The notes beneath the pieces were generated by a model that saw nothing but the letters and a program-made list of their open reading frames with translations, was not told the origin of the DNA and searched no databases. Shown here one piece after another: positions 42,727-48,991 of a stretch of DNA of 64,000 bases. Within the stretch, counting starts at the first letter, position 1; every line of letters begins with the position of its first letter. The stretch comes from Shigella phage SF1-1. Location: the sequence record PQ571307. The stretch is one strand, 5' to 3'. The translations under genes were made by a program, and so were the position numbers.

Positions 42727-43110
42727 TTATTGATAAGCTGGATCGTTTGTTATATCAATCCAATGAGCTAAATTAATTTTATTTTTTGCTTTCATTTTCT
42801 CGATCAAACGTTCGGCTAATGTTTCTGAACGAATATAAACGTTTTCGCTAAAATCTTGCCCCGTTTCTTCGTCGATCATCTCACGATATTCGATTTTTCC
42901 GATAAACGCGTGATTCAGCGCATAAGTTTTACCCGTGTACCAGTTATGTAAATGGATCTCACATTTATAATCATCGCTATACCCTTCGGTTGTTCTAACT
43001 TCAACCAGGTCGCCTTTAAACACTGATAAGCACCACATAGGATCACGGTCTACAGCGCCGTTAAAGTCTTTACCGTTTACAGTCGCTGCCAGGTTGATGA
43101 TATTGCTCAT
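42727..43110 (-). CDS. hypothetical protein
   Basis: Preceded by a promoter/stem-loop cassette; higher GC than the surrounding blocks. Confidence 0.5.
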   Translation of the reverse strand: MSNIINLAATVNGKDFNGAVDRDPMWCLSVFKGDLVEVRTTEGYSDDYKCEIHLHNWYTGKTYALNHAFIGKIEYREMIDEETGQDFSENVYIRSETLAERLIEKMKAKNKINLAHWIDITNDPAYQ

Positions 43111-43130
43111 CGTGTAATCCTCTCGTTTGC

Positions 43131-43192
43131 TTTGGGAACTATTCCCGCCGCCCTATGAATTAAATATACACTATCTCAAAATGATTGCAAGC
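43131..43192 (-). repeat. promoter + GC stem-loop cassette (PeSL-like) 1
   Basis: Minus strand: TTGCAA, 16 bp, TATATT, 10 bp, GGGAA-tag-TTCCC palindrome, RBS, ATG. Confidence 0.55.
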
Positions 43193-43207
43193 CTTTTTCT
43201 AAATTAT

Positions 43208-43492
43208 TTATGCAGTAAACAAACCATCATTTACAACGGCGGCGATGATCTCCCGCGCCATTGATTCAGGGAACGGGTCGCTATAGTCCTGGCTTGTCTC
43301 GTCGCTGTCTGTTATCCAATGATAAGCCAACGAGTAAAAGCCTTTACTGCTTGTTTTCAGTGATATGATGATCACACGATCAAGCCCATCGGTAAACGTT
43401 GCCGTTAATGTGCTATCATCTTGCATCGTGCCGGACAAATAAGCGGCATCATTAACCATGGAAAACATTAGCACGGTGTTAGCTTTACGCAT
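43208..43492 (-). CDS. hypothetical protein
   Basis: Preceded by a GGGCGC-atcaa-GCGCCC hairpin; likely co-transcribed with the upstream small gene. Confidence 0.45.
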   Translation of the reverse strand: MRKANTVLMFSMVNDAAYLSGTMQDDSTLTATFTDGLDRVIIISLKTSSKGFYSLAYHWITDSDETSQDYSDPFPESMAREIIAAVVNDGLFTA

Positions 43493-43534
43493 GATTTCAT
43501 CCTCAAAGGGGGCGCTTGATGCGCCCTTGTTATG

Positions 43535-43681
43535 TTAATCCTCTAAATCTGTCCAATTGTATTTGTCACTCTTCCCGCGCTTTGTTTTATTACGCTTGTC
43601 GCCTTTTCGGATCACTTCCTCATTCCAGGCCTTACGGATCTTGGAAGATTGAATTTTTTCTGCGCGATTAAATGTATTCAT
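43535..43681 (-). CDS. hypothetical small basic protein (48 aa)
   Basis: ATG after AGAGGAAACA directly downstream of a cassette; not in the ORF track. Confidence 0.35.
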   Translation of the reverse strand: MNTFNRAEKIQSSKIRKAWNEEVIRKGDKRNKTKRGKSDKYNWTDLED

Positions 43682-43692
43682 TTTGTTTCCTC

Positions 43693-43755
43693 TTTATATG
43701 AGCGGCACCATTGCCGCTATATTGTTAATTTAAGTTATTTTGTAAAATTGCCAAG
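43693..43755 (-). repeat. PeSL-like cassette 2
   Basis: TTGGCAA ... TATAGC then GCGGCA-atgg-TGCCGC hairpin. Confidence 0.45.
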
Positions 43756-43760
43756 GTTTA

Positions 43761-44114
43761 TCATTCATAAGAGCAAGCAAGGATCACGCCTGCAATATAA
43801 AGCCAATAATTTTCCCTTTCTCGTTGGATTTTATCATCGCTGCTATTCTCTTTAATGTATCCCCAGGATGTTAACAAGCGATCAATTTCCCAATATTCGA
43901 AAGCGATATTAATATCTGATGGCAAACCTTGTAACCATGATGCAAGTGCTTTAACAATACTATAATTAAAACGTGATTGATTATCAGGGTACCAGTACTC
44001 GGAATTAAAACGGCGCATCAATTCCGCGATCTTCTCTTTTTCGGTTGTAATACCATAATCATTAAAATCGATAGCGGCAAGAATGTACTCTTTAATTGCA
44101 TTTTGTGCTTTCAT
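43761..44114 (-). CDS. hypothetical protein
   Basis: Preceded by a cassette. Confidence 0.5.
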   Translation of the reverse strand: MKAQNAIKEYILAAIDFNDYGITTEKEKIAELMRRFNSEYWYPDNQSRFNYSIVKALASWLQGLPSDINIAFEYWEIDRLLTSWGYIKENSSDDKIQRERENYWLYIAGVILACSYE

Positions 44115-44129
44115 GGTCTTTCTCTCTTT

Positions 44130-44190
44130 TTAGCGGGAACTATTCCCGCCCTACGTGTAACAGTTTACTGAAAATTAAATCCGTGTCAGG
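44130..44190 (-). repeat. PeSL-like cassette 3
   Basis: CTGACA, 16 bp, TAAACT, 11 bp, GCGGGAA-tag-TTCCCGC. Confidence 0.55.
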
Positions 44191-44192
44191 CT

Positions 44193-44414
44193 TTATTTTG
44201 TTACTACCATTTGGTACCCTGTTTCAATGTTAGTAAACACTGTTATCCCGTCCTGGCGTTCACTCATTAACATACAAGGCGCTAACATCCTTTCTACTGC
44301 CTTGCACTCATTGTAAACGGCGGTTATGTCTCCTGCGGCCTTGTCTTCTGTGGTGAATGTATCGTTTACGTAAACCTGACCAGCGACAACGGCGACAATA
44401 GCGAAAGTGATCAT
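44193..44414 (-). CDS. hypothetical protein (N-terminus MITFA)
   Basis: First 16 nt of the ORF are identical to those of the 44489 gene. Confidence 0.45.
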   Translation of the reverse strand: MITFAIVAVVAGQVYVNDTFTTEDKAAGDITAVYNECKAVERMLAPCMLMSERQDGITVFTNIETGYQMVVTK

Positions 44415-44419
44415 GATGT

Positions 44420-44488
44420 TTCCTTGTTAGTAGTGGTTTCTCTTCTCTATAGCGCCTTATAATGGGCGCTATAACGAAAAGTCAACGA
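44420..44488 (-). repeat. PeSL-like cassette 4 (variant, hairpin overlaps the -10)
   Basis: TTGACT, 17 bp, then TAGCGCCC-attataa-GGCGCTA. Confidence 0.4.
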
Positions 44489-47268: not shown

Positions 47269-47284
47269 TGTGTTACCTTTTTTT

Positions 47285-47350
47285 GTTTTGGCGGGGAAGT
47301 ATTCCGCCGCCCTATGTGGTAAATATTATGCCAGTGGCGGCGATATGTCA
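47285..47350 (-). repeat. PeSL-like cassette 11
   Basis: TTGACA ... TAATATTTACCACATAGGG ... GGCGGAATACTTCCCCGCC. Confidence 0.5.
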
Positions 47351-47354
47351 AAGA

Positions 47355-47915
47355 CTATTTTTCAAAATTTTCTAGTGCGATCCTTTTTTCTTCCTCTGTC
47401 GGCTGATAATCAGGAAAAGCATCAACACACAACAACGGCGGGATCTCTTCGTACTCTTCCTCTTCCGTTGTCTCCTCGTCTTCCTCCTGGGCTATGGCTG
47501 CAATTTTGGCTAATTTTCTTTCAGCTTGAATCAATTTACCATCAAGTACGTTTTTTGCCATGTTGTAAGCGGTCCAGGTGATGCGCTTACTTTCCAGGGC
47601 CTGATCGAGCGCCGCTATCTTGCTGGGGTATTCATCCAGGACACGAAAAGCCGGATCAACTTTGTACAAAGGATTATCTTTCGCGCCGTCGCTCGCATCT
47701 TCCGCACTGGATAAATCAGCGTTACCATTTGCCAGCCAGCCAGGGCGCACATAACGCGCTTTTACGTTGCCGTTACTACGTGCTAATCTGTTACCTATTT
47801 GCTCACCGCTATATCCCGTGGATTCATCAATAAGATGATCGGGAATGATGCGCGGATCATCTGCTTCATGTTTTACCCAAGACTGGATCACATATTCGCG
47901 GCCCATATTAACCAC
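47355..47915 (-). CDS. hypothetical protein (186 aa, acidic C-terminus)
   Basis: Second gene of a two-gene unit. Confidence 0.5.
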   Translation of the reverse strand: MVNMGREYVIQSWVKHEADDPRIIPDHLIDESTGYSGEQIGNRLARSNGNVKARYVRPGWLANGNADLSSAEDASDGAKDNPLYKVDPAFRVLDEYPSKIAALDQALESKRITWTAYNMAKNVLDGKLIQAERKLAKIAAIAQEEDEETTEEEEYEEIPPLLCVDAFPDYQPTEEEKRIALENFEK

Positions 47916-48165
47916 CTTTTTTCAACAATTGGCATACTTTAAAAAGACTTGCTGAATCCTTGCAAGGGTAGAAAGATGTACGATAATCACGTACGCCAAC
48001 CTTGCGGATCTCGATGTTCTCGCATGTTGTTTGATCAAAGATATTTATTTCATCACGCCCCCTTATATAAACATAGTGGGGATGTATTAACGCATATTTT
48101 GCTAATCTGTAAAAAGCGTTATCCTTGAACGCGATCACGTGACCTTTTAATTTGATGTAAAACAT
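47908..48165 (-). CDS. hypothetical protein
   Basis: Preceded by a cassette. Confidence 0.45.
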   Translation of the reverse strand: MFYIKLKGHVIAFKDNAFYRLAKYALIHPHYVYIRGRDEINIFDQTTCENIEIRKVGVRDYRTSFYPCKDSASLFKVCQLLKKGG

Positions 48166-48171
48166 TCTACC

Positions 48172-48238
48172 ACCTTACAAATAGCGGGAACTATTCCCGC
48201 TTTATGTAACATATTAACAAATTATTCGTTAATGTCAA
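48172..48238 (-). repeat. PeSL-like cassette 12
   Basis: TTGACA ... TAATATGTTACATAAA ... GCGGGAA-tag-TTCCCGC. Confidence 0.55.
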
Positions 48239-48241
48239 ACC

Positions 48242-48514
48242 TTAAAGCAAAAACGCTACATCTTGCGCTTTTAGTGTAGTATCAACCATTTTCGGGCTTT
48301 TATAATCCACAAAGCGCGCGGTTTTTTCAATAGCAAAACCGAGATAATCTTGTTTATTGAATTTACATTCTTTCTTAAATGTTTCCCGCGCCACGGTGAT
48401 CGCTGCGTCCAGGGATAAACGCCCGTCAATGTTGATATTTGCGAAAGATCCGCCACCGCTCACAGGTTTACCAGTGGTGCCAGCTACGATCATTGTTGCG
48501 CTATATGATGCCAT
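48242..48514 (-). CDS. hypothetical protein
   Basis: Internal ATG (track ORF start runs into the upstream cassette). Confidence 0.45.
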   Translation of the reverse strand: MASYSATMIVAGTTGKPVSGGGSFANINIDGRLSLDAAITVARETFKKECKFNKQDYLGFAIEKTARFVDYKSPKMVDTTLKAQDVAFLL

Positions 48515-48537
48515 GATTATAATCTCTCTTCTGTTGT

Positions 48538-48600
48538 GAGCGGCTGGACCATTCCGCCGCCCTATGTGATACATCTTATCAGGTTGTTGGTTGTTGTCAA
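48538..48600 (-). repeat. PeSL-like cassette 13
   Basis: TTGACA ... TAAGATGTATCACATAGGG ... GGCGG-N-CCGCC hairpin. Confidence 0.5.
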
Positions 48601-48606
48601 TACTTT

Positions 48607-48804
48607 TTATTCTATTCCTGCAATCTGATTAACGCGTTTGCATTTTGTAGCGTGCTGGTCTTCTGTAATTACTCCCATTTCTAACAGTGAATCAATGAAA
48701 GATAAAACCGTTTCATAATCATCCTGGGGATGACTGAACTCAGTAAAACCGTTTACTACCACGTTTATTTGTCCAGCTTTCGCCACAATGTGCAATGTCG
48801 CCAT
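48607..48804 (-). CDS. hypothetical protein
   Basis: Internal ATG after TGGAG (track ORF start runs into the cassette). Confidence 0.45.
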   Translation of the reverse strand: MATLHIVAKAGQINVVVNGFTEFSHPQDDYETVLSFIDSLLEMGVITEDQHATKCKRVNQIAGIE

Positions 48805-48817
48805 GATTTTAACTCCA

Positions 48818-48890
48818 AATAATGAGCGGCACCATTGCCGCCCTACGTGGTAAATATTATGCCGCCACCTGGCGAACGTCAATCGCTTTT
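48818..48890 (-). repeat. PeSL-like cassette 14
   Basis: TTGACG, 17 bp, TAATAT, 11 bp, GGCGGCAA-tgg-TGCCGC, then TGGAG RBS and ATG. Confidence 0.55.
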
Positions 48891-48991
48891 TCAATCTTTT
48901 TTATTTTCTTTTTGCTTGCTATATATAAAGGAAAGGGCTATCATCTTTCTACCGCGCCAACCAGGGCGCACAACAAAGAAAGGGCGACACC

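Follow-up and report, generated by a model that had tools for sequence, protein, structure and literature searches.

A repeated promoter-hairpin cassette between the small genes of Shigella phage SF1-1

Why would almost every small gene in one stretch of a phage genome be preceded by a promoter and a GC-rich stem-loop of its own? The question is raised by Shigella phage SF1-1 (PQ571307), of which a stretch of 64,000 nucleotides, here called the window, was analysed. Between 42.7 and 48.9 kb its minus strand carries a block of 17 small genes of 48-183 codons each, separated by repeats that a preliminary description, made from the sequence alone, likened to the promoter-early stem-loop (PeSL) cassettes of T4-type phages. 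The window itself is assigned by its sequence to a Phapecoctavirus (a phAPEC8-like myovirus; subfamily Stephanstirmvirinae), not to a T4-type phage. The repeat is best described as a cassette in which a sigma70-like promoter is followed, at a nearly constant distance, by a GC hairpin, and most boundaries of gene gain, loss and replacement among close relatives fall within it.

Promoters and hairpins between the genes

Fifteen sigma70-like promoters were located in the block, with -35 elements starting at 48882, 48600, 48238, 47351, 46899, 46445, 46113, 45687, 45359, 45041, 44742, 44485, 44189, 43754 and 43190; after 13 of them comes a GC hairpin, then a purine-rich leader, a ribosome-binding site (RBS) and an ATG. 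The spacers with a promoter-like element number 14 and are 70-97 nt long. In an independent consensus promoter scan the block sites were top-ranked in the region, and 10 of them match at least 10 of the 12 consensus positions. A strict composite motif, defined as a promoter with at most three mismatches whose -10 element is followed after 6-16 nt by a perfect GC-rich stem of 6 bp or more, occurs nine times in the block, compared with 0.013 occurrences expected from 300 Markov shuffles of the block and none when the entire window was shuffled; its single other site in the 64 kb is at +3488. The recurrence of the promoter-hairpin cassette is far beyond chance, and the array noticed at first reading is real. 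The earlier statement that each cassette serves one or two genes is also correct, as the genes starting at ATG 47906 and ATG 43492 have no promoter of their own. The GC hairpins of the 13 cassettes range from -7.8 to -16.6 kcal/mol and, assuming a transcription start 7 nt after the -10 element, begin at +3 to +7 of the predicted RNA, which agrees with their proposed location at the 5' ends of the transcripts.

The layout was quantified on a pooled sample of 106 cassette copies from the window and six relatives (7 genomes), which contains 43 distinct hairpins. The -35 element is TTGACA in 91/106 copies and the -10 element has the form TAnnnT, with a spacer of 16 nt in 85/106 copies and of 17 nt in the other 21/106, as predicted for the sigma70-like promoters of the original account. 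Hairpin onset lies 6-12 nt after the -10 element in 106/106 copies (10-11 nt in 72/106), and the ATG follows the hairpin at 14-27 nt (median 19). Stems of 6-10 bp enclose loops of 3-5 nt, and the stem sequences are diverse within one genome. The consensus of the paralogues in the window and in the related phage tuntematon reads AAaAA...TTGACA-N16-TAAaaT-gTAtcACaTAGGGCGG, with an information content per position of 1.80 bits in the -35 element, 1.32 in the -10 element, 1.02 in the 18 nt after the -10 element and 0.31 in the spacer. The 8 nt upstream of the -35 element are 76% A+T (consensus AAaAA); downstream of the hairpin the sequence is A-rich, purine-rich and nearly C-free around the Shine-Dalgarno (SD) site. 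The hairpin forms an independent fold in each of the 13 predicted leaders, and SD-AUG stretches are less often paired there than in shuffled leaders (0.64 vs 0.52 unpaired, p=0.0012).

With their intergenic position, short loops and GC-rich stems of 6-10 bp, the cassette hairpins resemble intrinsic terminators. The latter have a U-tract, however, and the cassettes have A-rich sequence in its place. At least five T within the 8 nt past the stem were found in 1/54 distinct copies on the sense strand and in 3/54 on the antisense strand, and the first base past the stem is A in 79% of copies. A terminator scan flagged two of the 13 cassette hairpins (48843-48824 in sense orientation and 43701-43718 in antisense orientation). 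U-tract terminators are present separately within the block, for example at 42711-42693, and an identical unit lies inside the tuntematon block. By these features the cassette hairpins are not canonical terminators, in keeping with the lack of U tracts on either strand that had been reported for them.

Whether the stem is under selection was examined on a structural alignment. A covariance model was built from nine copies with 3-nt loops, and Infernal then aligned the rest; a MAFFT alignment of whole cassettes was set aside, as it placed no gaps in the loops and left the 3' arms of the loop classes out of register. Among 101 matches (57 distinct), 91.4% of the cells are standard pairs. Six of the nine stem pairs change on both sides; one of them is GC in 25 cases, GU in 23 and AU in 4, and another is GC in 34 vs CG in 16. 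The covariation score was 0.203 vs 0.104 in shuffled alignments, a value reached by 0/500 shuffles, and the signal was lost when the 3' partner was slid by one to three columns. The compensatory changes of the preliminary description are thus upheld; its perfect palindromes are so only in part, since the GC hairpins are there and several stems are bulged or C.A-mismatched. Between the window and the six relatives, orthologue identity is 0.975 in the -35 element, 0.959 in the -10 element, 0.944 in the stem and 0.943 in the leader, and 0.880 in the spacer, 0.887 in the loop and 0.905 at third codon positions. This pattern is the one expected of a working promoter and a working helix. Sense-strand folds are modestly more stable than antisense folds (32/43, p=0.014).

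Gene exchange at the cassettes and the proposed role of the hairpin

Comparison of the window with the six relatives yielded 20 distinct breakpoints of collinear homology. Cassette spacers make up 24% of the block and contain 17/20 breakpoints (p=2e-8); the remaining 3/20 lie on stop codons. Neighbouring alignment blocks overlap within cassettes at 47306-47329, 46810-46821 and 43103-43122, indicating that the crossover falls inside shared cassette sequence. The junctions hit varied parts of the cassette (the A-tract, the segment from the -10 element to the hairpin, a hairpin arm, and the RBS/ATG), a scatter that ordinary homologous recombination across ~90 bp would produce and a site-specific cut would not. 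The block-end terminator at 42711-42693 is also a homology breakpoint with the relatives. The best database matches of the block are ~94% identical and come from phAPEC8-like myoviruses, and no record spans more than 82% of it, which indicates that gene content varies even between close relatives. The region thus behaves as the hyperplastic region first suggested: gene content varies among the relatives, and gain, loss and replacement map to cassettes.

Two cases illustrate this exchange. A two-gene insertion at 45700-46364 (minus strand), consisting of an ORFan and a GNAT acetyltransferase gene, is absent from tuntematon and from ESCO13; in the window it is bounded by two cassettes (numbers 6 and 7 in the order given below), and tuntematon has one cassette at that place. 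Conversely, the tuntematon genes gp014-029, gp031-032, gp036, gp042 and gp044 are missing from the window. In the promoterless spacer 43493-43534 (minus strand), a hairpin GGGCGC-AUCAA-GCGCCC (43528-43508) precedes the gene 43492-43208, and a terminator stem is joined to the 3' part of a cassette via a GCGCCC microhomology. This spacer is a deletion scar, left by the loss of two genes compared with tuntematon.

We think it probable that the unit is a portable early-expression cassette whose hairpin serves as a boundary or insulator element at the RNA level; promoter activity, early timing, start site and hairpin function are what we infer from sequence. The block would be an early accessory-gene region in which each small gene or gene pair has its own cassette of ~85-90 bp. 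This cassette consists of an A-tract, near-consensus sigma70 -35 and -10 elements 16-17 bp apart, a conserved initial-transcribed box (gTAtcACrTAG), a GC hairpin of 6-10 bp that begins ~10-11 nt after the -10 element, an open, purine-rich leader of ~19 nt holding the Shine-Dalgarno site, and the ATG. Host RNA polymerase would start at every cassette, placing the hairpin ~3-5 nt behind the 5' end of the gene's own mRNA; in transcripts that read through from upstream, the hairpin would sit just past the stop codon of the preceding gene. Folding alone, it would leave the RBS free regardless of which gene lies downstream. It may slow 5'-end-dependent decay, and it may also act against 3' exonucleases or cause a slight attenuation of read-through. 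Both the constant spacing to the -10 element and the conserved box before the stem suggest that hairpin position relative to its own start site matters, and this fixed position, together with independent folding and an open SD-AUG stretch, is why a boundary or insulator role in RNA is favoured. Because the ~90 bp repeat recurs between unrelated genes, the cassettes would double as homology for gene insertion, deletion and replacement.

Several points weigh against this proposal. A literature search for this phage group gave no transcription data, and promoter use, timing and starts are predictions. If transcription starts at the standard 7-8 nt past the -10 element, the predicted unpaired 5' tail is ~3-4 nt, which makes a classic 5' shield only borderline plausible. 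The alignment that gave the covariation signal had been fitted to the structure of the model. G.U pairs number 18 on the sense strand vs 23 on the antisense strand, a weak test of selection on sense-strand RNA that is uninformative on RNA versus DNA because many stems carry a sense-strand C.A mismatch; these counts and the modest difference in fold stability leave room for a role of the helix in DNA. Finally, viable indels must end between genes in any case, so the placement of the breakpoints is expected in part by survivorship and is not by itself proof of cassette-mediated exchange.

Were the cassettes true PeSL-type units, the hairpin would mainly terminate or attenuate upstream transcription and so isolate each gene. 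An RB49 PeSL stem-loop placed between a promoter and lacZ cut expression about as much as rrnB T1 (PMC2839356), attenuation would avert a build-up of polymerase downstream of 14 strong promoters in tandem, and the two hairpins flagged by the terminator scan look the part. We nevertheless find this account unlikely, given the near absence of T-runs and the A that usually follows the stem, the use of textbook U-tract terminators elsewhere in the block where ends are needed, and a fixed distance from the -10 element that a terminator does not need (RB49 has five position classes). The conservation of the 18 nt after the -10 element among paralogues, in contrast to the spacer, could instead reflect a protein binding site formed by the hairpin and the conserved box, which would coordinate the early set through an RNA-binding repressor or nuclease or as a DNA operator at +5 to +25. 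Partly similar loops (AUGG, UAG), a position after the start that is typical of operators, and a G.U asymmetry test compatible with a DNA-level palindrome are in line with such a site. It is rather improbable all the same: the stems GGCGGGAA/UUCCCGCC, GCGGCA/UGCCGC, GGGGAA/UUCCCC, GGGGCG/CGCCCC and GGGGAGAA/UUCUCCCC coexist in one genome, the variation in loop (3-5 nt) and stem length (6-10 bp) fits selection for pairing over half-site sequence, and a candidate binding protein was not identified.

Another alternative takes the hairpin to be chiefly a structure in DNA, either a cruciform or a hairpin in single strands, that targets recombination as an integron-like site or a crossover point of the PeSL mini-circle type. 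It would account for homology breaks at cassettes and for one deletion junction inside a hairpin arm, and it has a precedent in one RB49 crossover mapped to a PeSL loop. We regard this as very improbable, because the junctions are spread over cassette parts as in ordinary homologous recombination, no recombinase is linked to the block, and the -35 element, -10 element and leader are as constrained as the stem. Hardly credible is a functionless passenger of one ancestral promoter cassette that was often copied: the copies are clearly related and their fixed geometry could stem from common descent, yet the spacer has been randomized (0.31 bits) while the stem stays paired through two-sided changes and is better conserved than the loop and third codon positions, and an unrelated hairpin occupies the equivalent place after the +3488 promoter.

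A further reading, unlikely in our judgement and put forward tentatively, is that the box and hairpin form a cis-acting RNA signal read by a phage or host factor for stabilization or timed shut-off of the whole set. Such a lineage-specific regulon tag would be acquired automatically by newly captured genes and would work on a principle other than the termination known from T4 PeSLs. Should the portable-cassette reading be right, cassette-mediated gene shuffling would not be limited to T4-type phages and would have a separate origin in the phAPEC8/phi92/rV5 group. Cassettes would then mark the boundaries of exchangeable modules in phages widely used for therapy and biocontrol and could serve as compact, self-contained expression units. 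For tests of how a promoter-proximal hairpin acts, ~45 natural stem variants are on hand.

The block, its surroundings and the spread of the cassette

All features of the block described below lie on the minus strand and are given in the direction of transcription. Cassette 1 (48805-48890) has an A-tract, a -35 element TTGACG (48882-48877), a 17-nt spacer and a -10 element TAATAT (48859-48854); its hairpin GGGCGGCA-AUGG-UGCCGCUC (48843-48824) is followed by the leader and RBS of the gene 48804-48607. Cassette 2 (48515-48608; TTGACA 48600, TAAGAT 48578-48573) has a bulged hairpin at 48562-48538 and precedes the gene 48514-48242. Two genes, 48165-47908 and 47906-47355, are predicted to be driven by cassette 3 (48166-48241; TTGACA 48238, TAATAT 48216-48211), with the hairpin AGCGGGAA-UAG-UUCCCGCU at 48201-48183. 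Cassette 4 (47269-47354; TTGACA 47351, 17-nt spacer, TAATAT 47328-47323) has a bulged hairpin at 47311-47290, contains the homology junction with relatives at 47306-47329 and is followed by the gene 47268-46906. The hairpin of cassette 5 (46815-46905; TTGACA 46899, TATAGT 46877-46872) is GGCGGGAA-GUGGU-UUCCCGCC at 46860-46840, and its gene spans 46814-46452, with an alternative ATG at 46835.

The window-only ORFan 46364-46134 is preceded by cassette 6 (46365-46451; TTGACA 46445, TAAAAT 46423-46418, hairpin 46407-46383). The next spacer (46057-46133) has a promoter only, TTGCAA at 46113 and TATAAT at 46091-46086 separated by 16 nt, without a GC hairpin; its gene, 46056-45700, is the window-only GNAT acetyltransferase. 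Cassette 7 (45609-45699; TTGACA 45687, TATACT 45665-45660), with the hairpin GGGGAA-ACUUC-UUCCCC at 45647-45631, precedes the gene of a DUF7249 protein (45608-45369). Cassettes 8 (45279-45368; TTGACA 45359, TAAGAT 45337-45332, hairpin 45320-45300) and 9 (44961-45050; TTGACA 45041, TAAATT 45019-45014, hairpin 45003-44984) are followed by the genes 45278-45051 and 44960-44748, respectively. In cassette 10 (44657-44747; TTGCAA 44742, TAAACT 44720-44715, gene 44656-44489) the hairpin at 44703-44680 carries a C.A mismatch. A variant cassette (44415-44488; TTGACT 44485, TATAAG 44461-44456, gene 44414-44193) has its hairpin UAUAGCGCC...GGCGCUAUA at 44473-44448, straddling the -10 element, which is the commonest geometry among RB49 PeSLs.

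Cassette 11 (44115-44192; CTGACA 44189, TAAACT 44167-44162, hairpin 44150-44132, gene 44114-43761) is the top match of the covariance model, at 60 bits. Cassette 12 (43682-43760; TTGGCA 43754, TAAATT 43732-43727) has the hairpin AGCGGCA-AUGG-UGCCGCU at 43718-43701 and precedes a T7 gp1.1-like gene (43681-43535). After the deletion scar comes cassette 13 (43111-43207; TTGCAA 43190, TATATT 43168-43163), with a shortened hairpin, GGGAA-UAG-UUCCC, at 43146-43134, and its gene, 43110-42727, which encodes a T4 Gp30.8-like protein. The block is closed by the intrinsic terminator at 42693-42711, AGGGCGC-ACCAA-GCGCCCU followed by UUCUUUUU, also given as GGGCGCACCAAGCGCCC followed by TTTCTTTTT. At 12015-12090 (minus strand) of tuntematon, the terminator GGGCGCACCAAGCGCCC and TTTCTTTTT is immediately followed by the RBS and ATG of gp032 without a promoter, so that gp032 would be expressible through read-through only.

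The annotation of relatives across the block gives coding genes and ribosome-binding sites only. Four of the 17 block genes have a Pfam family above the curated cut-off and 13/17 have none. The four encode the GNAT acetyltransferase (45700-46056; 118 aa, PF00583, E=5.6e-10), the DUF7249 protein, the T7 gene 1.1-like protein (43535-43681; PF08200) and the T4 Gp30.8-like protein (42727-43110; PF06019). They are of the accessory type seen in the early or hyperplastic regions of unrelated phages. The block of phi92 likewise terminates with a Gp30.8-like gene, and such accessory genes are common to unrelated phage families. Partial matches to the block, at 82-95% identity, were found in records named as Campylobacter phages B15 and C3, Acinetobacter phage ABPW7, Pseudomonas phage PsgM04F and Klebsiella phage ZCKP1; possible reasons are unreliable host labels in these records and a broad host range. 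A 62-nt match to Enterococcus phage heks (81% identity) is probably due to chance.

Both flanks of the block have long non-coding stretches. Just upstream, between divergent units, ~800 nt (49270-50070) contain no open reading frames (ORFs); this stretch is AT-rich with many short repeats, including TAAATGAGAATGATTATCATTT-like units every ~29 nt at 49521-49628 and a 72-nt pair at 49641-49712 and 49779-49850. Tandem Repeats Finder returned nothing for the non-coding stretch next to the block, and the homologous place in tuntematon is annotated as a repeat_region. It could be an origin or control region. On the other side, ~1.6 kb past the block terminator (41037-42710) have no convincing ORF and are 94% identical to a tuntematon stretch (4227-5874) free of coding sequences; they hold GTTGGTTAGTTG-like repeats and a GC hairpin near 41839, and Rfam gave no match from 41500 onward.

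How far does the cassette extend beyond the block? The covariance model, suggested at the outset as a check alongside the comparison with relatives, found 12 copies in the window, all on the minus strand at 44125-48861 and confined to the block. In tuntematon (complete, 150 kb) it found 21 copies in the homologous block at 7.1-17.4 kb and zero matches in the remaining 100 kb; a lone copy outside the block (39267-39335) lies on the plus strand, opposite to the others, before gp093, a gene for a TerC-like membrane protein. The cassette is present in at least 15 spacers of phi92 (genus Justusliebigvirus), adjoining the right terminal repeat, and in some spacers of FV3, an rV5-like phage of another subfamily. 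FV3 also carries three copies (6463-6542, 7084-7171 and 10803-10887) of a second intergenic module, gtttatttttagaTGGCCTTGACTCCAGGGCCAtcaataaagTAAACT, in which a hairpin encloses the -35 element, and rV5-like phages therefore have at least two cassette types. The strict cassette pattern occurs in six contigs only of IMG/VR, four of them 137-153 kb long, and the covariance models of Rfam 15 gave no match at E up to 1 on either strand of 41500-50500. In these searches the cassette family is confined to the phAPEC8/phi92/rV5 lineage. The literature searched contained no earlier account of the cassette in Phapecoctavirus, Stephanstirmvirinae, rV5-like phages, phi92 or PVP-SE1, with the FV3 and phi92 genome papers possibly outside the search; the promoter table of the rV5 paper ends 7 nt after the -10 element.

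The single site outside the block, on the plus strand at 3488-3560, consists of TTGACT, 16 nt, TATAAT, 12 nt, the hairpin UGGGAGGA-GGUGAG-UCCUCCCA, an RBS and an ATG. Its hairpin is unrelated to the family. The unit is also conserved in tuntematon (116317), where it precedes a small gene close to nrdA. The phage thus seems to favour placing a hairpin after a promoter even where the repeated family is not involved.

Relation to known systems

Some hairpin-bearing signals could be set aside. N4-type hairpin promoters were rejected, as the cassette hairpin comes after a good sigma70 promoter and Phapecoctavirus-type phages are not known to have a virion RNA polymerase. Sites like lambda nut/boxB were set aside as well; there is no boxA at the right place, and there is a promoter for each gene. 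REP-type stabilizers, and the protective hairpins left by T7 RNase III sites, act as intercistronic 3' barriers. The cassette hairpins resemble them in lying between the genes of a putative polycistronic early region, where they could define stable monocistronic units, but the cassette stems are too short for RNase III, so that RNase III sites were rejected, and they contain no REP sequence.

A closer likeness is to the 5'-terminal stabilizing stem-loops of Escherichia coli mRNAs, of the ompA and papA type, which were reportedly described by Emory, Bouvet and Belasco in 1992. In these, as is predicted for the cassette, a stable hairpin lies very near the 5' end of the mRNA and upstream of an open RBS. 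Such stem-loops protect only with at most ~1-2 unpaired 5' nucleotides; for RppH and RNase E of E. coli, 2 unpaired 5' nucleotides suffice and at least 3 are preferred (PMC8833179). The 5' tail predicted for the cassette is ~3-4 nt (2-6 nt depending on the start site), and a classic ompA-type shield was downgraded in view of the RppH/RNase E requirement (PMC8833179).

The system most like the cassette is the PeSL, known from RB49/phi1, PST/T4 and nt-1/KVP40 (Arbiol et al. 2010, PMC2839356; Comeau et al. 2014, PMC4122927). Three parts define a PeSL, namely a sigma70-like early promoter, an AT-rich tract and a stem-loop (PMC2839356, section 14; PMC4122927, Fig. 3 legend). The stem-loop may fall in the AT-rich tract ahead of the promoter, overlap one promoter box, occupy the interval between the two boxes or immediately precede the start site, and five classes are distinguished in RB49; PST and nt-1 have it directly ahead of the promoter. 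It has been shown to terminate transcription, and the promoter to be very strong (PMC2839356, PMC4122927). PeSLs are concentrated in hyperplastic regions, are found on either side of indels and are able to form mini-circles (PMC2839356, PMC4122927). The Phapecoctavirus cassette is likewise an intergenic repeat of ~70-100 bp with the same parts, from the AT-rich tract through a near-consensus sigma70 promoter and a GC stem-loop to a Shine-Dalgarno site and an ATG. Its copies, too, cluster in a hyperplastic region of small ORFans and mark places where close relatives differ by insertion, deletion or replacement.

The differences, which led us to abandon the original identification with PeSLs, concern position, termination and descent. 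When RB49 ORF185-211 was read directly and distances were measured from the end of the -10 hexamer, every hairpin began 13-33 nt upstream, and its far end lay anywhere from 11 nt upstream to 8 nt downstream. The position-variable PeSL stem-loop is upstream of the promoter, inside it or shortly ahead of the start site, whereas the Phapecoctavirus hairpin always starts 6-12 nt after the -10 element, so that it belongs to the predicted transcript of its own cassette. The PeSL stem-loop terminates; the Phapecoctavirus hairpin lacks a U-tract and probably does not share the terminator function of PeSLs. No sequence relationship is detectable: the covariance model found nothing significant in 100-150 kb of RB49, its best score (16 bits, E=0.11) lying outside the PeSL region, and the phages that carry the two types of unit belong to different lineages, Straboviridae and Stephanstirmvirinae. 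If the portable-cassette reading is right, the cassette would be a second, independent system in which to ask why promoter-plus-hairpin units accompany phage accessory genes, here with the hairpin in the leader of the gene itself. On the features compared here, the Phapecoctavirus cassette is a functional analogue of the PeSLs, as a promoter module and a recombination linker, that stands outside the PeSL family.

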